A stretch of 64,000 nucleotides of DNA from Cystobasidiomycetes sp. EMM_F5 (lineage: Eukaryota), in contig JBPGPT010000011.1 in assembly GCA_051047955.1 (NCBI GenBank), forward strand, positions 372,001-436,000, in the 5' to 3' direction. The position numbers were made by a program, and so were the translations under genes. Positions 12,094 to 45,652 of this stretch are shown here, in pieces; the stretch's first letter is position 1; the number at the start of each line of letters is the position of its first letter. Under the pieces are notes generated by a model that had not been told where the DNA came from, searched no databases, and saw only the letters and a list, made by a program, of their open reading frames with translations.

Positions 12094-13880
12094 TTTGTTA
12101 ACCGAGCAGGCTATGTAGGCTAGGTCCAGGCTGATGAAAGTGGAAACTGTGCAGTGGCGACCACTGAGTCCCGATAAACGCGTGCCGGACACGCGTAAAG
12201 TACGGACGTCACGCTGCCGGTTGTGCGCCAAACCAGATAGCTATCGCTCGAAGTCGGAAGGCAGACCGTAACGCCTGGGAAGCCCTGATGTCCGATCCAA
12301 TATGCTGCGCATCAGTCAGCTTCGCGCACAGTCTGCCTAGTGCTTGCGATGCGAATGTCGGCCTTTCCAGATGGCTGGTCGAATTCGATACCGCAGCATT
12401 CCGCCCTCGCATCGCCTGTAAGCACGGAACAAGGCCAGAGCTTAGATTAGTTGTCTCGGAACAGCTTGACGGTGAGTCAAAAAGCGGTAACGGCTTCGAC
12501 TCCAGTGCGCCGGCGCCTCCGTCTACTACAAAACAGTCTCCGTCGGCGTAAAAGCGTACACACAGTCACAGAGGAACGGTTACATGCACTGTTGACATAC
12601 ATTATTATGAGCCTGACGCTCTTTCTCGCAACGTTTTGATGCGGTCTCCATCACATTGCACGAGCGGAGATTTCTCAATCTCATGTCAGCGTAAAACTGA
12701 CTTTGGTCTCGACCTAAATTGCCTCATCACAACCATAAGCACGCACTTTCGTCACGTTACACGAGTTGCGATCAAGTGCACCCTTTCCGCCATCCAGGCC
12801 GGCCAAACCGATGTACCGTAGCGGGGCGTAGTTTCGTTTGGTCAGCCCTGCCGTGATGCTGACGCTGATGAGCGGTCTCGTCGCTGACGAGGCGTGAGAA
12901 AAGCTTAGAGTAAAAATCAAAATCAGAAGAAAATCGACGCCCGGAAATTGACTGGGTCGTAAAGGGGAAATGAGAGATGCAAGTCTTTCCCTTCTCTCCG
13001 CTGATTCGCGACGCACTGCAAACAGCGTGCAGCTACCGACTGCAGGCGTGCGTTATCAGGGTTCTCGTCGGCCGTTGGCACTCAAGACACTCCGCTCATC
13101 ATCGAGATCTAAATCAGCGGCACTGACGGTGAATATGTCGGACAAAAAGACCCTTTCCCTTTAAGGTTGCGAAGGCGCGCTGACGACTCATCGCACTTCG
13201 CAGCTGGAATTGTCGCCATTAGACAAGCTGGCACACCCCTATGTAATTGGAGAGTCGTGGTCAGAGTGATCTTTTGTGAGCTTCAGCTTCCTGTGAGGAC
13301 AGCACTCGCTGACAAATCCGTTCACCTGCGCTGATATCGCGACCTTCTCGGTCCAGACCTGGACTGAATTCCGTCCTTCGTCATTGCCGTACGACGATTT
13401 CTCGTCAGTATTTCTCCGCTCCCGTCTCTCACTATACAGCTCCGAGATATGGCAAACTTCTAGTCGCTCGAGAAGTAAATGCAAACTCCGTTGACAGAAA
13501 CCCTGACGAAGTTACCTTCTTAAAACCAAGCGTAAGTCTCTTCCGCTCACCAGTCCCGTTCGCCCGTTCGGAACAGCACGGAAAAAGGTCGTGCGTCGAT
13601 AGCCTGCCTCTTGCCAGCGACCATGACGTGCTCCGCATATCAGCCAAAGTTGCTGTGACGAGATTCACTAATTTCAATTATCTCTTTCCTTTTGCCCAGC
13701 ACCGTCAAAGCATTTCTTTTGCCAAGTCTCGCTCAACCCAAATCGCGGAGACAGACTTCATAACAGTTCTTTGAAGCGGTAAGGGACTGCTCGCGCATCT
13801 TAAGATTTTCTCTACCTACTCACTGGCTGTCTCCACTCACCAATATTTATTCCGATTTGAAGCCTTGTTTCTCCCACATC

Positions 13881-15316
13881 ATGGATCCTTTTGACCGCCC
13901 TTCCTCGAGGAGCGGCTCTCGACGATACTCTACGGCTGGGGCTAGTCTTCCACCTCTTCCACCGCTCGACCTGTCGTCAACCTCATCCTACCGTCTGCCA
14001 CCTCCTCGTACTACAGGCTTTTTAGCTTCGACGCAAGACCACTTTTCGCCATACATGGGCACTCGCAATCCAGCCCCATCTCCCTCGTACTCCTCATCCG
14101 GCTATGGCTTTGATAGCCCGTACGGCTCTACTCAACTACCGCCGTTGCGTAACATTCCTCGACCCTCTAGTCCTTTGCTCAGTCCAAGGCAGAGAACCTC
14201 GACTCTGGGCTCCAGTGGATCGTTGGGACACTCATATGGTAAGCCGAATTTGTGTGCGTACGCTCAATCCTTTGACTTATGTTTGCACCTCCCAGAACCA
14301 CCAAGCCTCGGTAGTCTGTCCCTTGGCTCGTCTTCGGGCCTATATGGAGAAAGTAGCCTGCACAGACCTTCCACTTCACGCTCTCGCTCAACCCACAGCG
14401 ATGTTTTCTCCTCGCTCGGTCCATCGGATCTTGGCATGTCTAGATCCTATTCCGATCCTGACGGTTTTAGCCTCGGGCCACAAACAGCATCTTTGGCTGG
14501 TCCTACTCGCACCCGTGGCAGCAGCAGTAGCTTTGCTGGTGGTACCCTGAGTGCTCTGTCGCCACCTCTTACAAGCACCGGGGGCAATTCCCACGCAAGC
14601 AGAGGTATCCGCAAATTCTCCAAACGTACCACTTTCTCTCCGGCACAGCTCAATGAGATGGAGAGTCTTTGGTCCCAGACAGAGTATCCCAGCATCGAGC
14701 AGATTGACGAGTGTGCCAAGAAAGGTGATCTTTCGCCAAAGCAAGTTCGCACCTGGTGAGTTTTCAATCGCTTTCCCGGCTCGTTGCGAAGCTGACTGCG
14801 TATATACACGGCAGGTTCGGCAATACTAGACAGGCCCGCTTGGCTGGAACTCGTCGAGAAGCCAGACAGTCCCCCTTTCCAGGTCGTAGCAGACGCGATA
14901 CGTTATCCGTCTCGACAGCACCCCTCTTTTCACGCTCCGGCAGTATGAGCTCGGGATCTTCGCTCGGTGGCGCATCTGGCAGTGCAAGCCTTCCACCCTT
15001 AGCTCCTCTCCCTCTACTGAGTACTACAAGTCGAGGCAGTGGTAGCAGCAGTGCCTTTCCAGCTCCACTATCCAGCGGTTATGGTAGTCTAGGCATGCCT
15101 TCCGTATTCGCAAGTGCACCTTCACGTAGCCGCCGAAATTCCACTGTCGGCTTCGCAATGCCAGGCAGTTCTCTATCCGGCATGCCTTCCTTCTCGGACT
15201 TCTCTTCAGGCTTGTCTTCGTCTGGCGGCTCTTCCGGCTTCGGTTCTAGCGGCTCGAGCCTGTATCCTTCTGGTCCCACCCGCTACTCTGGCTGGCCAGG
15301 CGACGAGATGCGGTGA
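13881..15316 (+). CDS. Homeodomain transcription factor with Ser/Pro-rich flanks
   Basis: KRTTFSPAQLNEMESLWSQTEYPSIEQIDECAKKGDLSPKQVRTW/FGNTRQAR; intron 14756-14814 splits the helix-3 Trp codon. Confidence 0.88.
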
Positions 15317-15811
15317 CTCTTGCTTCATCGCTCTTATCATGCTGAAGCCTTGACACATAATACAACTATGGGCTACAGCATCCAATTCTTGTAGTACGCC
15401 TGCCACATCACGACATACATAGCGGATTCCGTAAAGCACAGCCACTGTCGCTTTGAATCCAAATCTGGGCAGAACAACGCCTTTGATTATCTTCTCAAAC
15501 TACTCCTAATCCACCAGTGCACATCTTGCGCCCGTGCACGGCAGCAAACACGGGGATCTGGCTATAATCCCAGCAGATTCTCTTTTTCATTCGCACAGCA
15601 ATATAGTACGAACAAGCGACACCCAAATTGGCTACTGAAATACCTCCTAATCTTGTGTAAGAACCCTTCTCTCGCCAGTACTGCTTTCGACGCCTGGTTG
15701 CGTGCGAAAGCCTGGCCTTGAGCGAATCATCATATTTTCTTCTCCTTTCTGTCGAGCCTGACTGCAACTTTGTAGGCTAGTGTTTTGCAAGTAGCTGCTC
15801 CAGTCCATGCA

Positions 15812-18800
15812 ATGCTGCTTCATCAAAGACTGCCTTGCCCGCGACCATATGATAACTACGCGGATAGCCGACCTTGCCACACTTCGAGTTGCGCATTATC
15901 GTTCGCAGATGTATGGGCTCGCCCATTTGACCTGCCAAAAGCTGAAACGACCTACAACTATGCAATGCATGGCGCTGACAACAGACATGCCCCCTCTGTG
16001 GGCAGTCGAGGCGGGGACAATGTGGACAATCTTGAGCTGACTGCGCCCGGCATCAACTACGGGAAATCTGCAATACATGCGCTCAATAATGAAGCTGGAC
16101 AGCTCTATAATGGAGCAAGTCAGGATAACATCAATGCAGGCCATAATAAGCCAACCACATCCGCCGTTCAGAAGAATATCGCGTTACCGAGACCCCCGGC
16201 TACGCCCACTGCGTATAAGAATCCAGACCAGCAGCTACATGTCGACCGTCGTGTATCCTCCGTCAACTTTGACAAACCTCTGCCGGCGTTTCCAATGCAC
16301 GAGTCGCCTGGCCGGCCTGCGCAAGCATTCGCACGTGCACTACATGGCTTTGGCATCATAGACGGCAAGGCGACACTGACAACCGCAACATGGACGCCCC
16401 GAATAAGTACGCAAAATATAGACGAAGCTCCCGCATTACCAGAGAAGCGTGTACTTCGTCACGATTCTACGACTTCCGTACGTCGCGTCAGGTCGTACGG
16501 AGATCTTTTGTCTTCGAGCAACGCACCGCGCGTGCCTTCGACATGGCAAGGCTCGTCGGATATGTCAAAGTCGTTGTCGGCAGGCCATTCGCTTGACGTC
16601 CACCCGACGCCTCAGCAGCAGGCGACAACCCAAATGCGAGCGTTGACGAAGAGAGCGTCTTCTGCGTTACTCAGAAGGCCTTCTTCAGCCAATCTCATGC
16701 ATGTCGATGCAATTGAGCACTCTCGAGCTGTCGGTACAGAGACTGCTCAAACAGCTGCAGTCGCTGCCGCACCGCTGAGCGTATCTTTCGCTATTCCTCT
16801 AGACGATCAGTCGACAACGCAGCAAACGCCGTCAGACAATGTATCGCACAATAGCCGCATGCGCAGACGCTCAAGCTTCTTCGGTCTTCCCGCGTTTCTC
16901 AGAGGAAAACCTAAGGATGTGGCTCTGCATCCGCAGGCTGGCAATACAGCGCACTCGATGGAGCAGCTGGGTAGTAACCTGCTCGATAACGATGCTGCTC
17001 ACACCCGGAATGTATTACAAAACTCCACCGAAAGACATGCTCCTCATCACGATCAAGCACACTCTCCTCCACATACACCCCCGGTTGCTTCACCATCAGT
17101 AGACAAATCCGGTCGTCGATTTTTCTCTATACCCTCCTTTTTCCGCTCCGCCTCCGCCTCTTCAACGCCTGTACATTCGAATTTCCCGTCCCGACCTGTG
17201 ACACCAGATAATACAACAAACACGACTCTGTCCGAGCAGGGTGGTCTGGTAGGCAATCGTTCAGCTTCCCAGCCAATCTCTATTCCGCGCCTGCCCAGCT
17301 TGGACACGTTATTTGCACCCGCTGACCACCTTGACCACGGCATGTTTGGTCATGGTGCAACTGGACAGCCGAGGCGCAATCGCGCAGATACCGCAGAGAG
17401 CGCACAAAGCGTGTATCTGTCAGCCATATCTTCGTCTCCCCTCCGTGAAAGCTCTTTGCCTTCCGACTTTGCAAAACTGGAAAATTCAGATGTTGAGAAG
17501 ACATTCCGCCTTGGGACCAGCGTATCTAACCCATATAGCCCAAATTCGAGTATGCCGGCTTCACCCGCACAAGCTCGCAGTCCGAGCGATCGACCATCAT
17601 TTGTTAGATCGCGTTCATCGAACAGTGTAAGTGGTACGCACTCCCCCTCATCTCCAGCAGCGGCACCATCGTCTCCCTCCCCGCTCATTACCCTGACGCC
17701 ATCACTCACTGCACAAGACCTTGATGCAACAGTGGAGAGTCCTCACCTATTGGAAAGTCCCAAGACATTGGAACTGCCGGAAGGAGGTTTGTACCCAAGT
17801 GGTCCATCAGTCCGCTTTTCCATTGGGTCCAGACGCGGTCGAGCTGGAAGTATGGGGTCCTCCTCACCGACACAGAGTGTGGTCATCGATGCCCCATCGA
17901 ATACGAGCGGAGCCAAAGCAGTCGCCATGCTGAAGCTGCGACGCCGGGCCAATACTGCTGGCTCTTCTTTCTTCGGTTCTACATCTTCCAGTCCAGTCTC
18001 GCCGTCCGATCCAGATACTCTTGAAGCTCGCACAATGCGTAATGTGTCATCATCTCGCTTGTCAGCGTTGTTTTCGCCTCAGGCATTGCTTGCGCCTTTA
18101 TCATCGCCATCTCCGTTACTGGATGGGCTGCAATCGTCTGTGAGGGAAGATAACGGGTCTGTTATTGTCAGTATGAAATTGAGTTGCCGCACTGCTCCCA
18201 TTGCTGACAATAACCTCAGCCGGAAAGGCGCAGCTTCAGTCCAGGTAATCGGAAATCGGGGTCGAGAAGTCGCAGCACATCGAATGCTGATCAAAAGGCA
18301 CGCGGCACGGTCATCCACCCCGCGGAAGGAGATACACCGGCTGTCTATCTCGAACGCCTTCGAAATGCTTGTCCGATCAGCGAAGTCGGCGGATTACTCG
18401 CCAGCGTGTAAGAGACGGCTCATACGTGACTGCAAATACAGGCTGATCTAGTTTGAATAGTGCCGACAATATTCACACGTCCACCTTGACTTTATTCATG
18501 CAAGATTTTAGTTTTGACGACATCCCGATTGACATTGCGTTGAGACAGCTATTACTCAAAGTCCGCCTCCCTCAAGAGACTCAACAGATCGATCGTCTGA
18601 TGCAGGCATTTGCCGAAAGATACAATGAATGCAATCCAAAGCTTTTCACATCGCCAGGTCCGTTGCGATTTTGAAGTACGGCTTTTTGCTTCGAATAATT
18701 GTTGATTCACTGTGTTCAGATCAACCATACATCCTCGCTTTTTCGATGATCATGCTACATACAGACGCCTTCAACAAGTCGAATAAACGCAAGATGTCGC

Positions 18801-28338: not shown

Positions 28339-28759
28339 TCAGTCTCTCCAAGTTCTTATAACTTCAGCAGACATTGTATCGTTTTCGTCAGAGCGTTTGA
28401 CTTCCACCTGATGGTCTCGACGCCAGGCGCGGAAGACTGGCGCCTTCTCCGTGTCCTCATCAGCTGGTGCTGTCGAGGCGGGAGAGGCAGTTGCCTGCGT
28501 TGAGGTGGAGGTTAGATTCGGTAGATCTGCAACGATACGCTTCTCTAGACTGTCGTTGGATTGTCGATTAGCACGGATGAAGCGATCGCTGTCTCTCCCA
28601 GCAACCTGACAAGCACGTAACATTTGTCAATTGATACTTCGAGAAGGTAGCGGGTGGCCTTACTGAATTGGCGTGCGCATTGGCCCCGCAATCGGTTGAG
28701 CATAGTAGTATAGCAGCAGAACCTGCGACCAGGAGGACCAGCTTTGCAAGACCGAACAT
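28339..28759 (-). CDS. Secreted Kex2-processed repeat peptide precursor 1 (about 120 aa, two RxW cores)
   Basis: Signal peptide MFGLAKLVLLVAGSAAILLC; phase-0 intron 28606-28663; ...LEKR IVAD...DEDTEK APVFRAW RR...KR SDENDTMS AEVIRTW RD*. Confidence 0.75.
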
Positions 28760-29750
28760 CTCGACCGCGACGTTATGTGACTGCTGTTGGAGACTTTGAC
28801 GGTGATTTTGACAAAGTGACAGCTGATGAGGCCTAGCGTAGATTACGGATTTTGAGCTAGAAGGTGATGACAGTAAGCGTCGAGCGAGAGTGCAAAAGCA
28901 TTCGGAGTCGACATACCCTTCGCAATATGTGCTCCCGCAACACCAGTACCGTATTTGTCGAAAGTTGCGACCTTTAGACATACTTCGTCAACATGCGCGT
29001 CATCAGCAACCGCACCTAGGCAACTCGACCCCACCCGACGACCGAACCGTGAGAGGGTTCTGTTAAAGCTGCAGTTGTTGCGTCAAGAGGGTGCGAAGAA
29101 ATAGCGACTGAAGTGACGCCGCGACTGGTCGGTCAGGCTTGGGTGCAGCTCGAACACCCTCGACACGGCGTCACCCGCCATGGCCCTCGGCACCGTACAG
29201 CTCTCTTTCACCGTCGTCAGCGGCTCGTCAGCCATCACCTAATCACTTTGGTCAGAGGAATTCGGGGCGGCCCGACTTCGCAAGACGGTCAGCTGTGTGA
29301 GACATGGCCCGGGTCATTCAGCACGACAGAGGGGGACATCGTCTTAGAAAAAGGCAGCTGGTTGGAGGCTCAGTGCCGACGTGGTCACTACAGCACAGTA
29401 GTGGACAGACGGCTGACAAGTACGATAAACCATATATCGCGACTTTGGTTTGCGCAATCTGCGTTCATTCCGCCTATAATTTCTCCGGCTAACGTGACGC
29501 ACATGCACTGCGACTCGTGCATAACGACTGAATATTGACAGTCCGCATCCGTATCTCGTACATCCTTTGATTCTCGACTGTCGGCCGCCGCCCATACGTT
29601 CTCACTACCCTTAACACCCCTACTAAGGTTCAGCACCGCATAGGCGGTGAGACTCTGTACACGAGATGTCTCCAATGTATGCTATACATTTGCTAGCACT
29701 GTTTTTCGCTGTCTTCTCGAACCAATTTCGTTTTACGAAAGACACTCGAT

Positions 29751-30985
29751 ATGAGCAATTCCGGATCATCGAGGAACCCGACACAGGCTTGGACAGCCCC
29801 GAGATACGTATCACCCTGGACTTGGCTGCTTCCCGGAGGATTGGGTCAGCGGGCCCCACCAGACGAAGTCTTATCTGACAATTTTCACTACAATGTGAGT
29901 TGTTCGTTTATTATCCACATTCATCGTCGTCTACTGAGTGCTCCTTGTCTGCCACAACAACAGCTCTACCTCGCCATCTGTCTAGGCGAGCCGCTTCGTG
30001 CTGGCCAGCCAAGTCCACCTGAAATTTTCGCGAGACTGCATGACGAGCAGCTTACCCATCCAAACGACGTCCATAGGTTCTGGAGCATAACCAACAGAAC
30101 GCGTGCTTTCAATGTCGAGTGCGAGCGAGACGGATTAGATGGTGCCTATGCAGATATGCTCGCGCAATCAGCACACCTACCTTTCAACGATTACAGGGAA
30201 ATGATTTCGACAATGGAGGGTCATGCCATCATTTTTAATATGGGCGATAATGAACGCACTGCTCTGCGGACCTTGGAATGCCAGAGGATAGCTATCGAAG
30301 CCGTACCACAACATTTGAGCAGTCTGACAGGCTCAAACCGCGCAGGAGTACGACAGGCAGCCATTAGGTTGTATCGAGAGATGTGCGCAGTGGTGCAGGG
30401 TCCATCAATGGTAAGCGACTTTGTGTACGCTCTTAGTATGATAATATGACCAGTGACATTGTCAGGCCAATCCCACAGGACGGTCGGTCCGTTCGGATAC
30501 AGTGAGTCGGTAATATAATTGGCAAGGGACATTCTAACACAATGTACGCTATGTGACACTCGCAGAGCGTGAGTGCTCGATCGTCTCGGCATAGACCAAC
30601 ATCCTCCCTAGGATCGGCGTCCGAAGCTGTAGGACGGAATGAGCGAGATCTACGGCGTCATAGGCGGACATACAGCGAGTCAGCTGCCTCATCCATGAGG
30701 GTTTCACCAGATCGCCAGCATCGAGACTCTAGGTATCGCCATCATGGACCTACACTACAGCCGTCCGCCTCCGCCTTCCGGCCTGTTGGTACTCAGCATA
30801 AGCAGGCATACCCGCTACCACGTCAAAACGGCAGGCAAGTTCATGAACGCCGAAGATTTCAACGGCAACAACAGCGAAGCAGAGATGATAGTACATCGAG
30901 AACAATAGTTGATCTCCTACTTTGTCTGAACACGTTCTACAACGTCTGTTCCCGCAGCCGGAGTATGCGGTCTCCAAACGGGTAG
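29751..30985 (+). CDS. Unknown-family paralog A (4 exons)
   Basis: WTAPRYVSPWTWLLPGGL...NFHYN/LYLAICLGEP...LRTLECQRIAIEAV...LYREMCAV; introns 29895-29963, 30411-30465, 30502-30565; homologous to the next two genes. Confidence 0.75.
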
Positions 30986-31561
30986 CAAAGTTTCTCTGAC
31001 AAGCGCATAATTTTCGCCTGCACCCGCCAAGCACAGCCACTCGTACGGCAAAAGCGCGATGTACAATCAACTTTTTTTGGCAGATGCTGAAGCCGGACCA
31101 TAGTCGACTGATAGCTCCTGCATGATTCACGTAAATGTCTTACTCAGTGCCTCGACTGAAGGGCGGAAGTTGATCCTTTCGATTGTCGCTAATACGTTTG
31201 CACCGCCATCATGTTGCGTACAGTACTAAAGACGATGCCCGGACGCTAACAGTTTGGAGTACACGATGATGCGCCTTCTGTGCCATTTTTAGACCTTGCG
31301 CTGACAACTTTTGGAATTGCATCAGACCTATCGACGTCGGCTTACTGTCATTCGAAGTGGACCAGCACCGCAGTGGTCGGCAGTACGCCCGGCTAGCTGC
31401 CCTCCTTGCCTTTGGCCGTCGCACACCGCCGCACATAGCTGAGGCAAGTCACTTCTACTCTGACGTGGTCGATGCTCTCTGCTTTCAGTTGCTCCAGCTG
31501 CAATCCACTCCCGGTACAATTCCATCTACGCAAAGGTATCTTCATAGGTATTACCGATTCC

Positions 31562-32842
31562 ATGTCGAGCTCGATGAACGGATGGACGGCGCCAAGACAC
31601 GATCGAGCGTGGACTTGGCTCCTTCCAGGAGGACTAGGAGAAAGAAACCCGCCGGGTGTGATGCCCCAAAATTTTCATTACAATGTGAGTCGCTGCAGTA
31701 TGTCACAAGATCAACAGCTGATCAACACTCCCTCTGTTATCCAGCTGTTCATGGCTATTTGCATGGGCGAGCCGCGTCGCCTTCGACAACGGAGTCCGCT
31801 TGAAGTATTCAACATACTGCATGAGCAGCAGGCAAATGTCCCGGATAGCATGTTCATACATTCGGACATCTGCGAAAGGACCAGAGCCTTCGTAGACGCC
31901 TGCGGACTTTCCAGATTGGATCACCAGTATGCCCGAGTTCTTATGCAACAGCACGAGGTTTTCCGCGATGTTACAAGCTCCCTACCAGAGGCAATACACC
32001 CAGAAGTGCTAATATCTGCCAGACCTGGCTCATACGCTGCCTTGCGGAGTTTAGAATGCCAAAGGATGGCTATTCAAGCAGTGCAAGGTTTCATTGCTCG
32101 AGTGGACTCTGACAGCAGAACCGCACGCAACGCGGCCGCTGCTTTATTCCGCGAAATGTGTGCAGTAATTCCACGCTCAACGAGAGTGAGTTTACAGAAT
32201 TGATTGGCTGGAGCACAAAATCTTGCTGTGCAAAGCTAAATTTGAATGAACGCTCAGGGCAGTCTGTCAGAACATGTGAGTACGCTGGGATGCAGTCAGC
32301 TATCGGCGAATACTCCTTGTGAATCGTGCTGACATTATGATACTGGCCTGCAGGAGCGCCACAACAGACGACCGACACATAGGCGACACCGCTCTGTAAT
32401 AGTCGAAGAGGTGCGACAGAGGCAAAGAGAGCGTATTCCAAATCGACACAGGCGGACGAGAAGCGAATCTAGTGTTTCGTCAGCGAGTGCAACAGCCTTA
32501 CCATGGCATCGAGAAACCCAATATCGCGGCGAGACGCAATCCCAAGGCGATGGTTTCCTCCGGCCTGCCTCGGATGGCAGAGCTTCGCAAGTCATGCAGC
32601 CTGTTGGTGTCCAGCACACGCAGGCGTATCCTCTGCCTCATCGCACTTACCGAGCCGACCATGGTCGTAGCAGACATCGTGCACGGCAACATCGCGATCG
32701 TCGCGATGATCGTGCGGCAGCGAGACAGATGGAGGGACTGTTGTCGTGTCTCACAGCCTTTATTAACGTGTATTTCGACAGGATGGGCGAAACTGCCTCA
32801 CGCACAGAAGGCAGACGTTCACACCGATCTATTGTTGTCTGA
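31562..32842 (+). CDS. Unknown-family paralog B (4 exons)
   Basis: WTAPRHDRAWTWLLPGGL...NFHYN/LFMAICMGEP...LRSLECQRMAIQAV...LFREMCAV; introns 31685-31744, 32186-32257, 32276-32353 (18-nt microexon between the last two). Confidence 0.75.
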
Positions 32843-33229
32843 ATCCGGTAGGATTACTCATGCACCACACTGCTGATTACTGCACTCCTCGTACAGTCGC
32901 TAAAGGGGATAATGAAATGATGACAAGGTGCTACGGCCGTGTGACGAATTTTCGGACACGCGCCGAGGATGTGGTGTAGCTCCACACTCTTTCGCAGGGA
33001 ACAGTAAGTTGCGGTGCAACCACGCTGGAAGCTTGCCGAAAAGCGGCGACATCTATCTCACCATGAAAGGTCTAGCTGTGTCGCTAATAGCATGCAGTCT
33101 GACTAGGGGGGCACAGGCCATAAAGCCGAAGTGCGCTGGCAAGATTGTCTTCCTTCTTCATCCACTGTCCCGGTTTGCCATTCGCCATCTGCGTCTCTGC
33201 TCACACCCAGCTGTCGCTCTCGTACCGCG

Positions 33230-34405
33230 ATGAATCACATACTCCATCCTCACTCTGTTAAAGGTAACGCCTGGTCTGCACCGTTACATCAGAGAAAATG
33301 GGTATGGCACTTGCCAGCAGGTCTGACACCTGATGGAGATGACCTTTTCTATTACAACGTGAGGCTTTCGGCCCGACTCCCCAACTCAGTCACTTTGACG
33401 TACTGACTGGGGTGTGCATAGCTCTATCTGGCGTTGGCTCTTGGCGAGGAAGAGCACTACAAGTCCGACCACATCCACCCCCACAAATTATTTTCGGTAC
33501 TCAGTAAACAAGAAAAGCGAAATCCACATTCATACCGTGTCAGTGGATTGAACATGGCCTTCGAAAATTTCAAGGATAGTTGCCGGAAGGACGGGTTGGC
33601 TTACACCTATGCCTGTTTCGTGCGTTATAGCCATCAGCCGCCGTCCGGAGCAGCCTGGCCGGAAGAGTCAACAAACGAGGACCGCGAGAAGGTGATCTCT
33701 GCAGTGCAGAATGCAACTGCTACATTGGCGAAATTTTTCTGCCAGAAGACAGCTATTCGGGCTGTACAAAATTTCCTGATGCATTCGAGCAACGGTAATG
33801 GAAAGTCGCGGACCGCAGCGAAAGCGCTATACAAGCGAATGTACCTTCTTTATGCTCATGCATCAGCTTTCCACAAGGTATGCACCCTGCCGGTATGTTC
33901 AACGACCACGTCTGACCGCATTGAAATTATGACAGATCGCCATTTACTCAATTCCGGGATTGCAAGCGACGGTAGGTAGTATTTGATGTTTCGAGGCATT
34001 GCTTAAAATTAGCGTTCACTTGCTCAGCAGATGTCCGGCGCAACCGCGGATGACAGTGGTCCGCTGGCACAAGATTCGACAACAGTAGTGCGCTTTCGCC
34101 ACTCTCGGACTGACAAAAGTGGCACGCATAGGCCTCTTGGAAACGAACCGCCAAGATCAGCCATGGTCGCTCAGTCCGTGAAACAAGGCAGGCCAGACCC
34201 AGGCCCAGGCCCAAGCATGTCGATAACTCCCGGCGGATCATCGTTTATCGGTAAAGATGGTCGCCAGTCCCATAACAACATGCAACTTACCACGACGGCT
34301 CCGAAGCATCTGAAAAAGCTTTCGTCCGCCCTCAGCCTGAACGTCCCAAATTCTCTCCTGGGAAAGCTTATGCAGAAGACCCTCGCTGCCCGTTTGTATA
34401 CCTAA
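33230..34405 (+). CDS. Unknown-family paralog C (4 exons, most divergent)
   Basis: WSAPLHQRKWVWHLPAGL...FYYN/LYLALALGE...FFCQKTAIRAV...LYKRM; introns 33359-33421, 33878-33935, 33972-34030. Confidence 0.7.
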
Positions 34406-39819: not shown

Positions 39820-40189
39820 TTCAGTGACAAAGTGTGCCTGATCGAGTGTTTACTGATTATGTAAGCGAGGAGTGACTCTGGACATGTCTCCTTCTTAGGA
39901 CTCCTTCCCCCTTCGCGCTGACTAAGAGCACTCTGCAGCCTGCTGACATGTGACTCTGACAGCATCGCCGTCGCTGCATCCGGCGATGTCGAGGCAGTGG
40001 AGGCAGTGGAGACTCAATCTATGTATCGCTGAAAGAGTGTGGGGGGAGTCTGCATACGTACACACTGACCAACACACACTCACACACCCTGCTAGATGCA
40101 GTGGACATCTCTGCAGCCGGATCTGCCAGGTGACTAACTGACACCACATCGATAGACGCGACAGACGCGACTCGACTCGCAGCTCGTGC

Positions 40190-40837
40190 ATGGGTCGCGA
40201 TTCATCACGCTCCTGCGGGCGACGCACAAACCTCGCAATCCTCTACGCCATCGACATTGCAGTCGTCGTCTTCATCTACCTCGCTACCGACAAGGCCTAC
40301 GGGACGGGCCACTTTAGCATCTTTAAAGGGACAATCACCCTCGAGGACTCATACAAGATTGTAGGCATATCCGGTGGTCCAATCGCAGGTCCGATCAACG
40401 AAAAGAGGGAGTTTTACCTCCTCCTCCACCGCATAGCAATGGCCGAACTGGCAGCCGTATCTACAATCCATACCATCGCTGAATTCGTAGAGTACTACCG
40501 ACGCAAAAAGTATGGAGACGCAAACTTTGAATCATCCGTATGGGCAAACGTCTTTGGCGTACTCTACTTTGTCGGATGGCTCTACGCGCTCGGCATATCC
40601 GCAGTAGGGTTTGTCATTTGCGCAATAGACTACTCGCACCAGTACCTCCACACCGACAATGACTTTAAAGGTGTGTCAGTGTCGCCAAAGGAGGGGGCTC
40701 AGTTTGCAGCAGTAGCGTGCGCACTCCTCCTCATCGGGGGGCTGTGGCGCATCATTGCCAGGGGAACTCACCAAAACGGAACGGCAAAGAGCGGTGCCCA
40801 TGAAGCAGACGAAAAGGCAGTCAGGATAAACATGTGA
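40190..40837 (+). CDS. Tetraspan membrane protein T1 (SUR7/PalI/claudin-like topology), intronless
   Basis: 215-aa ORF with four hydrophobic segments; aligns over its full length with 41615-42294; both end EKAVRINM. Confidence 0.8.
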   Translation: MGRDSSRSCGRRTNLAILYAIDIAVVVFIYLATDKAYGTGHFSIFKGTITLEDSYKIVGISGGPIAGPINEKREFYLLLHRIAMAELAAVSTIHTIAEFVEYYRRKKYGDANFESSVWANVFGVLYFVGWLYALGISAVGFVICAIDYSHQYLHTDNDFKGVSVSPKEGAQFAAVACALLLIGGLWRIIARGTHQNGTAKSGAHEADEKAVRINM

Positions 40838-41614
40838 CGGGGATGGATCGTCAATGTCCTTTTCGCCCTTGTCTAGTGAAGACAGCGCAGCATGGTCTCG
40901 GACAACTGTTTCTGCCCGCCGTGGCAGATCTGTGGAGCCGATACCCGTCGCGCTAAACCCGTCACAGGAGCTCACACGATGGAGACGACGATGCTTGAGT
41001 CATACCCTGTTGACTCGACCTCTTTTCAGCTCTCCATGACGGTAGTTGTCGAGACACCTTTGAGAGCAACGAACAGCAAATTTACGCGCATGCTAATCCG
41101 AGCCTCGCTACGGGACAGCCGTCGGTGACCCAGAGGCGGTCAGCAGTGGAGCAAGCTCACGTAGCGCTTAAGAACGCTCGAGGTTTCCGCCTCACTTACA
41201 ATCTGTAAATAGGTGTCCAGCCCGTAATATACGTATTTTTCAGTCGACAAGAGAACTGCTCAATGATATCCATTGACGAGGCGAATCACTAACGAGCGGT
41301 AGCTGACAGTAAAGAAACATACACTTTTCCGTTACCCGAAGGCCGAACACAGCACCCTTTCATGCTCCTCGGACAAAGTGCCAGCACCGCTCGTCGAGTG
41401 TCGCTTTCGTCTGTCACACCGCCTGAAAGATGGGAGGTTGTGCTTTCAACCTGTCTTTCGCTTGTCAAACTTTAGCGCAACGATATTTGGCATGCACCAG
41501 AGCTGTCTCGAAACGTGCGGACCCTGCTGGCCATCACGAACACGCTCTCTTGAAAGACCTCCTAACGCATCCATCGAATCGACACCGTAGTACGCGACGA
41601 GGATCTACCCTTGT

Positions 41615-42294
41615 ATGGGTCGCAGGGTCAACCTCGTCATCCTGTATGCTCTGGATATAATTGCCGTTTACTGCATTAAGCTGTCGACCGAAAGAGCTTA
41701 CGCTACTGGACATTGGTCCATCTTCAAGGGGACTATTACTCTTAATCAGACCTACAAGATTGTCGTAAGTGGCCTGTCAATCCATCCGAAGCATATCAAG
41801 TGATGACACCCCAAAATCAGGGCATCTCAGGCGGACCTATCGCTGGACCCATCAACGCCAAACGAACTGATCTGTTGCACAAGCACATGATTGCTATATT
41901 TGTGCTGGCTGGTGTTTCCTCGCTCCACACTCTCGTCGAGCTTGCCTACTACTACCGCGGGAAGAAGGTCGGAGACACGCACTATGACTGGTCATGGTGG
42001 CTCTCTGGAGTCGTTGGCGTGGCATACTTTATAGGCTGGACCTACGCCGTCGTCATATCTGGCTTTGGATTCATCATTTGCGCTCTCCAGTTTCTGCACG
42101 ATAAAGCGGGCGTAAATAACTCTTTTAGTGGATTATCAGTGTCGCCTCAGCAGGGAGCACAATTTGCAGCCATTGCATGCGCCCTCCTTCTCGTTAGTGG
42201 TGTGGGCAGAGTCGTCGCGACGTGCATCCGACAGACCGGGTCATCGAAAGCAGATCAGGACGTGGAGGAAAAGGCCGTGCGTATCAACATGTAG
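41615..42294 (+). CDS. Tetraspan membrane protein T2, tandem paralog of T1, one intron
   Basis: MGRRVNLVILYALDI...SIFKGTITLNQTYKIV/GISGGPIAGPIN...GAQFAAIACALLL...EKAVRINM; intron 41765-41820 (GTAAGT...CAG). Confidence 0.8.
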
Positions 42295-43065
42295 CCAGTG
42301 GCATGCACAGTCAGCTTGTGGTTGAGAGTATTCAGCTTCACATATACCGCGTATACGTAATATTCAGTCTATACTGTCTTCCGACTGTAGCGCCAGTCTA
42401 TGCATATGAGCCTTGCATTGTCCGGTTACCATCTTGACCAGGCTCTCAGCCATAATGTATAAGCATGCATTCATTCTCCCACGCCCCGTTATGGATTCTC
42501 CCGCTCTTTACGCCTCCTTTCCACGCTCCTCCTGTCGCGAACCTGACGCGCCCCGCTCATGATCTCAGTCCGAGGGGTCTTCATTTGCCAAGATGTAGAA
42601 CTTTTGCAATGTGGCCTCGCTGAGGCGTAGGTGACCTGCACGCCTTTCACCTAGGACGGTGATTGAAAGACATCTCGACGGTACGATATCCGGTCAACGG
42701 CTTGGGTGGTAGCAGTATCAAACGCAAAGGGCGACGCCTCGAATCCCCAGTACATCCAGGGCTCGACGTTGGGTTGGTTGCGGCGAGAGGTCGCGCGTTA
42801 CAGGGTGCAGGCAGAGGGTCTTGGTGACTGAGGCGCAGTCCGAAATCGTAAGCGGGGTTACATTTTCGCGGCCTTTTGCGAAGCGCTGAGATTGCACGTT
42901 CATTGGCTGTATCCTCTCCTTTGCAAAATTCCGTCTCATCGCAAAGACTCAATATCACGCTCCTTCATCTCCCGCCGTCAAATCACCGTCAATACTCCGA
43001 CCCTCGCTGTCAAATCCCAGCGGTCACCTGTGTCGACAATCAAGATCTCACACGTCTCAGCAGCC

Positions 43066-43871
43066 ATGCGTAGCTTTCCCAGCCTATGGAGCACTGTCAC
43101 CACCGCGACAGTCGTCTTCCTGGCCTGTTCGAGTGTCGCAGATGCCGTATGGGTCGATTTGCTAGGTCTGCGCATTCGAGCGTACTGACATACTTTTTGC
43201 TCTTGCAGCTTGATAACACCAACAACAACAACAACGAGATTCGCATGATCAGGATGCGCAGAGAATCCAATCAGGATGTACAAGAACGCTGGCTCTTGTT
43301 TGGAAATGGATCGCCAAGCCGCTCGTCAAGCGTAACAACCGCACAAACTGTCATTGGAAGTCCATCATCCGTCTCTACCGCTTCGACTGCCTCTTCGACG
43401 TCTTACTCGAATGACAACAACGATGACACTGAGAAGGCTGCTGCTTCTCGATACTGGGCTCGGATGAATGAGGCAGACCATGACGACCGCCGACATGGCG
43501 CTGACATGGACGGAGCGGACGACTCTGATACCGAAAAGGCCTGGGGTATGAGGTTCTGGAAGCGTGTCGTCTTTTTTGGCAAATCGCAAGGAGGACACAA
43601 GAGTGGAGAAGCGTCGCCGGAGCAGAATTTTGGTATGGAACGGTACTGGGCACGCGATAACGGCGATGACGAGGGCGCCACCGAAAAGAACTGGAGTCTC
43701 GGCAGATGGTGGGCAAGACGTAATGATGGTGACGCGCAAGCCGCCATCCCGCTACGCAAACGCATTCTGTTTGATAGCCCATCGAGTGATCAAGCACATG
43801 TCGACGAACCTGCTTCCAACAGCGGAGACGATCGCGATACCTCGCAGGCATGGGCTTATCGGGCGTGGTAG
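43066..43871 (+). CDS. Secreted Kex2-processed repeat peptide precursor 2 (about 247 aa, five RxW cores)
   Basis: Signal peptide MRSFPSLWSTVTTATVVFLACSSVADA; phase-0 intron 43147-43208; repeats DTEK-AAASRYW-AR, DTEK-AWGMRFW-KR, PEQ-NFGMERYW-AR, ATEK-NWSLGRWW-ARR, DTSQ-AWAYRAW*. Confidence 0.85.
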
Positions 43872-45652
43872 CTCTTCGACTGGGTAGTAGGCCAGCAATT
43901 TGGTGAGTGTAGCTGACACTGCTTGTAAGGTTATTTCACAACGCTGACGTGATGGATCAAGCAACAGACATATGCAGCTCTTCAGCGTATTGCAGTCGAC
44001 CGACTGAATGCGGTGCCTTTGCAGCAGGTCTGCAACGAACGCTGGCTGCATCTTGTCGATTTCCACAGGTCCATTCTGGACAATTCATGTTTGGCGTTAT
44101 CTGGCAAAGGTTTGCAAAGGGGAAGTGAAAGGGTCCCAGTGAGCAATGGACAATTTATCAATCTATTTCGTATTCAATGTTGGGTGCAGCATTGCTGTCA
44201 ACTTTCCCCGGATCATATGCTCGAGCCATACGTGACCAAGCTCTTTTGCGTCAGAAAAGTAACATTGATTGCTGCTATGGTGCTTAGTGTGCGATTGATA
44301 GGTTCATGAGAATACTAGACTTCGAGGTTATGCGACGCGTTGTTTACAAAAAATGTCAGGCACTACAGTCTGCGTCTGAAGAGCATTGCTGCGCTTTGCG
44401 GATCCCGCACACAGACTGCGAATATGCTGTGCTGAAGCGACACGGTGCACCTTCCTGTAGCATGGTGTGCTCTCTCCGACATTCTGCTTGGGCGTGCTCG
44501 TCCTTCCATGCTCTGCTCAGCTGAGGTGAGATGGCAATGTTATCAGCAGCCCGGAGCCAGTCGTCATATGCCTGCCTGCTTCACATCGTCATCGCAGTCG
44601 TCACTATACGCATCGATGAGATATCGAAGCTCGCGCCAATAAACCAAGCTGGGGTCAGTAGTCACTGTCGCGCGATTCCGGACCCGAATCGAGGCTACCA
44701 CGAAACGGCGTCGCGATAAGTGTGACCAGCGATTTGGTGACACGTACACCGTAGCTCTTGGCTAGCATTCGTGGAGTACGTCAGTGGTGCAATGTGCAAG
44801 ATACGTGTGCGAGCGAAGTCGTACGGCCTCGCGTGCATAATAGCTGCCTGGCCAATTGCAAGGCCTGCCAACGACAAGGGAATAGCAACTCAAGAGGGAC
44901 AAGAAGAAGTCGTATTTCCGCGTACTTTATATTTCAGCAAGCACCCATCAGGAAACAAACTATCTTATTGCTCAGCGGGGTAGACTTCGGACCCAAAAAG
45001 GCGGAATACGAGCATGAATACCAATTGCAATACAGAATTTGAACGGCAGACTGATTCTAACGCGAGGCATTGACGTACAGAGTGTAAATGGTGTTACACT
45101 GCCAGTATTCGAAGCCATGATTGTGTCCACCGCCTCGCACACCTGCACGTTTCGCGCCCTTCGACTTGGCAGGCTGCTACTCGCGGTGAGGCTGCTGACT
45201 AGCTGTCGGCATAAGCTCTGGGCTGCTGACACCGCAAGAGATAAGGAAGCAGAGGGTCGCTGATATCGGCCAAAAGAGGAAAGCTACAGCTGCTTGGGAC
45301 CGCCACGCGGACTCAAAACATGTCTGTGCCTGGGAATAGATGGCACCAAAATGGAAACTATACAGGACAAGCCCTGGCGCGTAGACGGTGCACAGAGGCC
45401 CGCGAGCATTTATCTCACTCGTACAGAGTCAGGGATTGGAGGCCAGGACTTCACACGCTCAACTTTGCTGTGCTCCCGAGCAAAAAAATGTGCAAATCTG
45501 GCGGCTAGCCCGCATGAAATTCTGCCGCTGGCGCAACAGCCAACCTGCAGGCGTTGGGGCAGTGGGCGATAGTTCTTGCTTTCATTCTCTTACCACCTCG
45601 CTGTACACTCTACATCTACTGGACGCTGTAGGCACCTGACAAACCTGCCAAC

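Follow-up and report, generated by a model that had tools for sequence, protein, structure and literature searches.

The 64,000-nt stretch of contig JBPGPT010000011.1 analysed here (positions 372,001 to 436,000 of the forward strand; called the window below, with its own numbering used throughout) carries two small genes for predicted secreted proteins that share one building plan. The smaller, gene A, lies on the minus strand and would encode a protein of 120 amino acids (aa) with two short modules ending in the motif Arg-x-Trp (RxW), while the larger, gene B, lies on the opposite strand, 14 kb away, and possesses five such modules. A sequence-only reading of this DNA had taken gene A for a minimal, two-module paralog of gene B, and BLASTP comparison and shuffle tests both agree with that relationship. 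The parts of gene A are as follows:

28339-28759, minus strand: gene A as a whole, two exons, 120 aa when spliced
28664..28759, minus strand: exon 1, ATG at 28759-28757, 32 codons, signal-peptide-like, beginning MFGLAKLVLLVAGSAAILL
28606..28663, minus strand: predicted intron, 58 nt, GTAAGG...TGTCAG, phase 0
28339..28605, minus strand: exon 2, 88 codons plus the stop TGA at 28341-28339
28537..28584, minus strand: basic N-terminal block RFIRANRQSNDSLEKR, with a Kex2-type LxKR site at its end and aligning with RMIRMRRESNQDVQER of gene B
28462..28521, minus strand: linker rich in Ser, Thr, Ala and Pro, PNLTSTSTQATASPASTAPA, with an NLT sequon
28417..28461, minus strand: module 1, DEDTEKAPVFRAW followed by RR (DEDTEK-APVF-RAW-RR)
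28342..28380, minus strand: module 2, DTMSAEVIRTW, then RD and the stop, with VKR-SDEN before it

The halves of gene A are found in two entries of the list of open reading frames (ORFs), 28568-28981 and 28339-28623, and both coordinates and anatomy match the earlier description of one spliced 120-aa protein split over the two. The translation of exon 1, MFGLAKLVLLVAGSAAILLCSTDCGANAHANS, has the layout of a signal peptide, with K6 in the n-region, a hydrophobic core (LAKLVLLVAGSAAILL) and a small-residue c-region, GANA/HA (AHA). Within this core (residues 4-20) the Kyte-Doolittle mean reaches a maximum of 2.59 over nine residues (residues 4-12) and amounts to 2.25 over 19 residues. The signal peptides of both genes were judged heuristically, by hydropathy and AxA-type cleavage sites. 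Read without splicing, the first exons of genes A and B both meet a stop within 14-34 codons, and the ORFs that contain the modules carry no signal peptide of their own. In gene A, 31 single-intron GT..AG models keep the frame; among them only the proposed donor fits GTR.G, and only the proposed intron falls within the length range of neighbouring introns, 56 to about 70 nt (a 56-nt GTAAGT..CAG intron at 41766-41821, and GTGAGT introns of ~60-70 nt at 29896 and 31686). With 12 Pfam-supported or long ORFs of the window as training set, exon 2 has codon-usage log-odds of +0.177 per codon in the proposed frame and negative values in the other five frames, which is supportive of coding without being decisive. 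These features suggest that gene A is a genuine eukaryotic gene with two exons and a predicted intron. To judge from the genes of the window and the form of their introns, the eukaryote is most likely a fungus.

Gene B is composed of the following parts:

43066..43146, plus strand: exon 1, 27 codons, signal-peptide-like, ending in VADA, with no upstream in-frame ATG
43147..43208, plus strand: predicted intron, 62 nt, GTATGG...TTGCAG, phase 0
43209..43871, plus strand: exon 2, 220 codons plus stop, with N-terminal block, Ser/Thr linker and five RxW modules
43422-43457, 43527-43559, 43620-43655, 43677-43721 and 43836-43868, plus strand: the five modules

Its spliced product would comprise 247 aa. 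Exon 1 has R2, a hydrophobic core with a Kyte-Doolittle value of 2.43 and the VADA site, again by the heuristic, and here 29 single-intron GT..AG models keep the frame, of which the proposed one alone combines a GTR.G donor with a neighbour-like length. Similarly to gene A, the codon-usage log-odds of exon 2 are positive only in the proposed frame (+0.174 per codon, the other five frames being negative). Dibasic sites occur at RR44, RR121, KR145, RR197 and KR211, and the N-terminal block contains LRKR. For both loci the public protein library contains prokaryote-style calls, one of 261 aa (43074-43871, with exon 1 in the wrong frame) and one of 94 aa (28339-28623); because these calls mis-start genes A and B, the true N-termini and the signal peptides are missing from that library. 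On the minus strand across gene B (43365-43935) all three frames are open for 128-186 codons, and since codon usage favours the sense frame, these antisense frames look like by-products of composition.

The shared plan proposed earlier, namely a signal peptide, a phase-0 intron directly after it, an N-terminal block, a Ser/Thr linker and modules, is found in both genes, and the strings on which the proposal had been built (RFIRANRQSNDSLEKR-IV, RMIRMRRESNQDVQER-WL, DEDTEK-APVFRAW-RR and NDTMS-AEVIRTW-RD) are all present. In a BLASTP comparison of the second exons, the best high-scoring segment pair (E=3e-6) aligns LEKR-IVADLP...DEDTEKAPVFRAW with LRKR-ILFDSP...DDRDTSQAWAYRAW at 19 of 43 identical positions, and a further pair (E=3e-5) is collinear over 107 columns, from the N-terminal block through two modules. 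Alignment against shuffled controls had been set beforehand as the check on this relationship: the local Smith-Waterman score of 86 was reached by none of 2000 shuffles (mean 34.6, standard deviation 6.0). The N-terminal block and the module region were also tested apart, to exclude an effect of the Ser/Thr linker; the block's score was equalled or exceeded in 2 of 2000 shuffles and that of the module region, with the linker left out, in 0 of 2000. Over the aligned codons the nucleotide identity is 131/264, 17 of the 31 identical residues are encoded by different codons, and the seven module Arg residues use five codons from both Arg boxes (CGC, AGA, CGA, AGG, CGG). Such codon differences at identical residues mean that the shared residues have been held at the protein level while the DNA drifted. 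By sequence comparison, gene A is an old, shortened and diverged paralog of gene B. A segmental duplication was considered and rejected, as no long direct or inverted repeat joins the two loci.

Aligned with each other, the seven modules follow a common pattern of an acidic run, D-T, T-E-K, four to five variable residues and R-x-W, followed by [A/K/R]-R. In the sequence-only reading the DT(EK) leader and RxW were described as kept while the core between them varies. The conserved positions and the varying core were recovered, but the leader is looser than claimed, with T in six, D-T in five and T-E-K in four of the seven modules. RxW is present in all seven, although it was also the anchor by which the modules were defined; all seven R-x-W triplets of the two proteins fall inside modules. 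A further conserved feature, which had been missed, is an Arg one to three residues after Trp in 6/7 modules, often as KR or RR, as would suit cleavage C-terminal of the motif by a Kex2-type convertase. By contrast, the residue before Trp varies (A, T in gene A; R, Y, A, F, Y, N, R/W, A and A in gene B).

This pattern is more frequent than composition would predict. The expression DT-x2-x(4-6)-R-x-W matches twice in protein A and three times in protein B, and either count was reached by 0 of 20000 composition-preserving shuffles, while R-x-W followed by Arg within 0-2 residues occurs twice in A and four times in B (reached by 17 and 1 of 20000 shuffles, respectively). In the six-frame translation of the 64-kb window, the five matches to the leader-plus-RxW expression all lie in genes A and B, and tblastn with each protein found in the window only the other gene, besides low-complexity matches at E >= 7e-4. 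A profile of the seven modules likewise recovers in the window those seven only (scores 21-30, next best 6.8), a circular result, as these very modules had served to make the profile. Judged from the alignment, the invariant Arg and Trp and the D-T-E-K-like leader would be positions under selection, and it is probably there that the processing machinery or a target makes contact. The dedicated enzyme or receptor that the sequence-only reading supposed to recognise DT(EK) and RxW is hypothetical, no candidate enzyme being found near either gene among the Pfam-scanned ORFs.

The mature parts of both proteins are devoid of Cys, bear a net charge of -2 (gene A) and -8 (gene B), and contain three and two N-x-S/T sequons, respectively; gene A has no Tyr at all. 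In gene A, dibasic sites are located at KR54, RR94 and KR102, the first being the end of LEKR (residues 51-54 of 120), and the spacer between module 1 and module 2 (SDENDTMS-AEVI-RTW-RD) reads DHQVEVKR. Single-sequence AlphaFold models reach a predicted local distance difference test score (pLDDT) of 64 for gene A and 41 for gene B, neither with a confident fold. The gene A model shows a helix over the basic block, a disordered linker (pLDDT below 50 at residues 34-54 of exon 2) and a low-confidence hairpin of the two modules.

In addition to their coding parts, the two genes have a short word in common upstream of their start codons:

28796..28809, minus strand: AAAATCACCGTCAA, 37-50 nt before the ATG of gene A
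42979..42992, plus strand: CAAATCACCGTCAA, 74-87 nt before the ATG of gene B

The common word, (C/A)AAATCACCGTCAA, is 13-14 nt long and matches twice in the 64 kb against 0.03 matches expected, two matches being found in none of 100 shuffles. As the frame of reading differs between the two sites, the word is non-coding, and it is possibly a common element of the 5'-untranslated region, the promoter or another regulatory sequence. When two mismatches were allowed, 14 scattered matches without any pattern were found in the window.

Searches beyond the window returned little except the query proteins. A homologous-protein search yielded only the query itself for exon 2 of gene B (among 359 candidates) and for exon 2 of gene A (among 2 candidates). 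With phmmer against 1.84 billion representatives, gene B found itself and one protein of 1596 aa, whose match (E=7.7e-5) is confined to the Ser/Thr linker; the ESM Atlas gave no usable match to gene B, the PDB none by phmmer at E up to 1, and Pfam none to either gene at E up to 10. A metagenome scan with the A/B alignment led to 273 pattern matches and another, for a syntenic contig with the intervening Spc7/Knl1 ORF, to 99, with no confirmed relative in either. The strings DTEKA, RYWAR, RFWKR, RAWRR and RWWARR are absent from the supplement text of two surveys of repeat-containing precursors (PMC6339444 and PMC7329392), and a literature string search found five of the six module hexamers in no paper, and the sixth ('ayraw') just as part of unrelated words.

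The reading we favour, to which we assign a probability of roughly 45%, is that the gene A product is a Cys-free, disordered pre-pro-protein that would be cut by a Kex2-type convertase, releasing peptides that end in RxW. According to this reading, the signal peptide would bring the protein into the endoplasmic reticulum, as hydropathy and AxA-type cleavage sites suggest, and the Cys-free and largely disordered mature part would then move along the secretory pathway, with probable glycosylation of the Ser/Thr linker and of the NxS/T sequons. In the late Golgi a Kex2-type convertase would cut gene A's product after LEKR, RAW-RR and VKR, and that of gene B after RR, KR, LRKR and perhaps W-A-R, and a Kex1-type carboxypeptidase, suggested by the fit of the motif, may trim the basic tails. 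The products would be acidic peptides of ~17-40 residues, each ending in hydrophobic-x-Arg-x-Trp, with putative roles outside the cell as signals, as wall or surface modulators or as host-directed molecules. Kex2 prefers Leu at P4, Lys at P2 and Arg at P1 (PMC8528282), and LEKR of gene A as well as LRKR of gene B fit this preference.

The broad class to which such precursors would belong is that of the fungal KEX2-processed repeat proteins (KEPs), whose definition requires a signal peptide and repeats with Kex2 sites between them (Le Marquer et al. 2019, PMC6339444; Umemura 2020, PMC7329392). Genes A and B share with the KEPs described there the signal peptide, repeated short modules, KR or RR at or between the modules and a hydrophilic, unstructured mature part, and, like most KEPs of those surveys, they are not accompanied by a DUF3328 gene among the ORFs scanned. 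Set against the pipeline of PMC6339444, both have a signal peptide (by the heuristic), both have dibasic sites (in A, RR94 after module 1 and KR102 before module 2; in B, at 3/4 intervals), and their repeats exceed the required 15% of the protein, with ~28% in A (2 x ~17 aa of 120) and ~30-36% in B (5 x 15-18 aa of 247). The pipeline also asks for at least three repeats, so that gene B, with five, would loosely pass as a KEP, while gene A, with two, fails the three-repeat rule. In contrast to the near-identical repeats of KEPs, A and B have degenerate modules, and Kex2 cleavage is here predicted.

The nearest specific analogue that we found is MiSSP8 of Laccaria bicolor together with the DW[K/R]R proteins, which are secreted and unstructured and have Trp directly before a KEX2 site, and of which MiSSP8 is a substrate of KEX2 cleavage in vitro (Pellegrin et al., bioRxiv 10.1101/218131). 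Like MiSSP8, the proteins compared here are small, acidic, unstructured and predicted to be secreted, have Trp directly before a dibasic site (RAW-RR, RFW-KR) and have few or no homologues detectable by BLAST. The regular expression given for that family (four DW[K/R] units, 2-20 residues apart) finds nothing in A or B, which contain no DW[KR]; moreover, in A and B the residue before Trp is variable while the Arg two positions before Trp is invariant, and the modules are 15-18 residues long with a D-T-E-K-like leader, as opposed to 6-residue DSDWRR units.

Three other kinds of precursor resemble genes A and B in part. The pro-region of MFalpha1 ends in an L-x-K-R site, LDKR. The alpha-factor-type pheromone precursors of ascomycetes (MFalpha1; PMC6339444) have in common with A and B the signal peptide, a pro-region ending in L-x-K-R and units bounded by basic sites, but no two cores of A and B are identical, no X-Ala or X-Pro dipeptide of the Ste13 type follows their KR/RR sites (the residues found there are IV, DH and SD in A, and ES, HG, VV, ND and IL in B), and nothing ties the two genes to mating. 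Ustiloxin-type (dikaritin) precursors (PMC7329392) likewise show a signal peptide and repeated modules of acidic leader, short core and basic site. By contrast, A and B lie outside any biosynthetic cluster, with no DUF3328/UstYa or tyrosinase in the scanned neighbourhood, and their cores are of the form x4-5-R-x-W instead of Y-x-I. In Kex2-processed pro-domain (K2PP) effectors, finally, a disordered N-terminal pro-domain ending in KR, RR or LxxR is removed to release a folded domain (Outram et al. 2021, PMC8528282). Here, too, the first half of the protein contains a disordered N-terminal stretch with LxKR/LxxR at its end (LEKR, 51-54), but the region past this site in A and B has neither Cys nor a confident predicted fold, and it carries further basic sites.

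Several observations weigh against the convertase reading. Gene A has two modules where the KEP pipeline asks for at least three, and the modules are not near-identical as in classic KEPs. Two modules of gene B have just A-R after them, and A-R is no canonical Kex2 site; modules 3 and 4 of gene B are separated by an interval with no KR, RR or KK (A-R only), and the last module of gene A ends in W-R-D, with no cleavage site. AlphaFold pairs the two gene A modules as a beta-hairpin (residues 57-86, pLDDT 58-71), and this hairpin, if real, would favour an intact small protein over cleavage. Regarding the gene itself, 14.8% of random stop-free windows of 88 codons match the codon score of exon 2, an in-frame ATG at 28981 lies upstream and its use would bury the signal peptide, and the splicing and expression of gene A are predictions from sequence. 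Finally, no search found a homologue outside the window, so that conservation among species cannot back either the gene or the motif.

The hairpin is one of the features that would suit a secreted, disordered repeat protein that stays intact, such as an effector or a wall or surface protein, whose modules serve as short linear motifs that bind a wall polymer or a host or partner protein and in which the basic residues after Trp belong to the motif. Repeat-bearing secreted effectors that remain intact are common. The modules differ outside R, W and the leader, as degenerate binding motifs would, two of them lack a canonical dibasic site, and the Ser/Thr linker with the sequons suggests a glycosylated extracellular protein, in addition to the pairing of gene A's modules in the low-confidence model. 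We nevertheless regard an intact protein as unlikely, though as an alternative to be taken seriously, given that LEKR and LRKR, in disordered sequence within the secretory pathway, come close to the ideal Kex2 site, that four of the seven modules have KR or RR directly after Trp (RAW-RR, RFW-KR), after Ala (RWWA-RR) or, in the case of module 2 of gene A, KR before the module, and that there is neither Cys nor a confident fold. A precursor of a RiPP (ribosomally made peptide with post-translational modification), from which RxW cores would be excised and modified, for instance cross-linked, at Trp or Arg by enzymes encoded elsewhere, with DT(EK) as recognition leader, would share the ustiloxin-type architecture of signal peptide and leader/core/basic-site modules (PMC7329392), and a conserved leader with a variable core would also be in keeping with it. 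This origin seems improbable, however, as the Pfam-scanned ORFs contain no match to DUF3328/UstYa, tyrosinase, P450 or methyltransferase, whereas in the survey the 22% of KEPs that do possess a DUF3328 gene have it, on average, ~3 genes away (PMC7329392). Genes A and B also stand 14 kb apart amid housekeeping genes, and they offer no core of the Tyr-x-Ile type and no Cys for Trp-Cys links.

Shorter products would result if a monobasic, yapsin-like cut between TEK and A released Arg/Trp-rich antimicrobial peptides of 7-9 residues, with the acidic leader neutralising them during export. This idea draws on a likeness to RW-rich antimicrobial peptides and on the specificity of yapsins, and an acidic leader does precede every core, while the cores after TEK are short, aromatic and, if the C-terminal K/R is counted, basic. 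It is nonetheless very improbable: TEK occurs in only four of the seven modules, the cores have a net charge of no more than +1 after Kex1-type trimming, the whole fragments bounded by dibasic sites are net acidic, and cleavage at a single Lys would have to be assumed. Nor do we give much weight to the possibility that there is no functional spliced gene, that is, that the ORFs are unrelated or that gene A is a decaying, unexpressed or unspliced partial copy of gene B. The gene model is indeed derived from the DNA letters, the searches found no relative beyond the window, 31 GT..AG models would formally do as alternatives, and A is far shorter than B. A dead copy so old as to have drifted to ~50% nucleotide identity would, however, be expected to show stops or frameshifts, yet the frame is intact from ATG to stop, including the signal peptide. 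Motif positions have been kept with synonymous change, codon usage is of the coding type, the position, phase and size of the intron match those of gene B, and the upstream DNA word is common to both genes.

Genes A and B look like a new, lineage-restricted addition to the broad class of fungal repeat-type secreted pro-proteins. If the convertase reading is true, they would add a new core type, with the leader D-T-E-K and a core ending in R-x-W, to the diverse fungal precursors of Kex2-type secreted products, and gene A would be a natural two-module minimal form, in which processing and activity would be simplest to assay. The pair further illustrates how orphan precursors may evolve, by an old duplication and the loss of modules with only a handful of residues fixed, and these mark the positions to mutate in a functional test. 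Because prokaryote-style gene calling split or mis-started both genes, families of this kind are invisible in libraries built that way. A much bolder proposal, which we consider improbable, is that A and B belong, as the first two members to be seen, to a fungal peptide system not described before, in which the RxW C-terminus and the D-T-E-K leader would be read by a dedicated protease and/or receptor, possibly with the tandem PalI/SUR7-like tetraspan membrane proteins upstream of gene B as partner, and in which the four to five variable residues would specify different signals and so form a combinatorial peptide code, instead of one peptide in many copies. Beyond these points, gene A would be an ordinary lineage-specific small protein with predicted secretion. 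Its main interest lies in the minimal two-module form with clearly marked constrained positions, which makes it an ordinary to moderately interesting find.

The Pfam survey of the wider genomic context covered 31 ORFs of ~180 aa or more throughout the window plus 100 further ORFs of at least 75 aa at 25.5-48.5 kb, where 14 of the 114 ORFs, antisense inside the Spc7/Knl1 ORF (36.5-38.9 kb), were omitted. The genes recognised in this way are ordinary eukaryotic ones and include those for a ferric reductase, a mitochondrial-type EF-Tu, TAP42, a homeodomain protein, a PPR protein, a WD40 protein, Spc7/Knl1, an Acf1/Itc1-like WAC-DDT protein and an amino-acid transporter. Near A and B the Pfam-scanned ORFs gave no match to DUF3328/UstYa, tyrosinase, P450, methyltransferase or protease, though small exons could escape such a scan, and scans of the window with Rfam and for tRNAs gave no match. 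The homeodomain ORF (13764-15316, plus strand) is followed by an ORF of 891 codons without Pfam match (15776-18451, plus strand).

Next to gene A and divergent from it are three tandem orphan paralogs on the plus strand, at 29697-30985, 31439-32842 and 33107-34405, with pairwise identities of 40% (E=3e-49) and 28% (E=1e-12). None has a Pfam match, and a protein-library search with one of them gave only the query itself. They share the motif W-[TS]-AP...W-x-W-x-LP-x-GL...[FY]-YN at the end of exon 1, followed by a GTGAGT intron, and a conserved ...CQ-x-x-AI-x-AVQ... region.

Gene B, in turn, is preceded directly upstream by two tandem genes for membrane proteins on the plus strand, at 40142-40837 and 41591-42294, which are 49% identical (E=8e-58). 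The 56-nt intron at 41766-41821 is present in the second of them and not in the first. No Pfam family exceeds the cutoff for these proteins, the weak hit being DMT_YdcZ with 20 bits, and their best Atlas leads are PalI/SUR7-like clusters, at sub-threshold values of 0.83-0.88.

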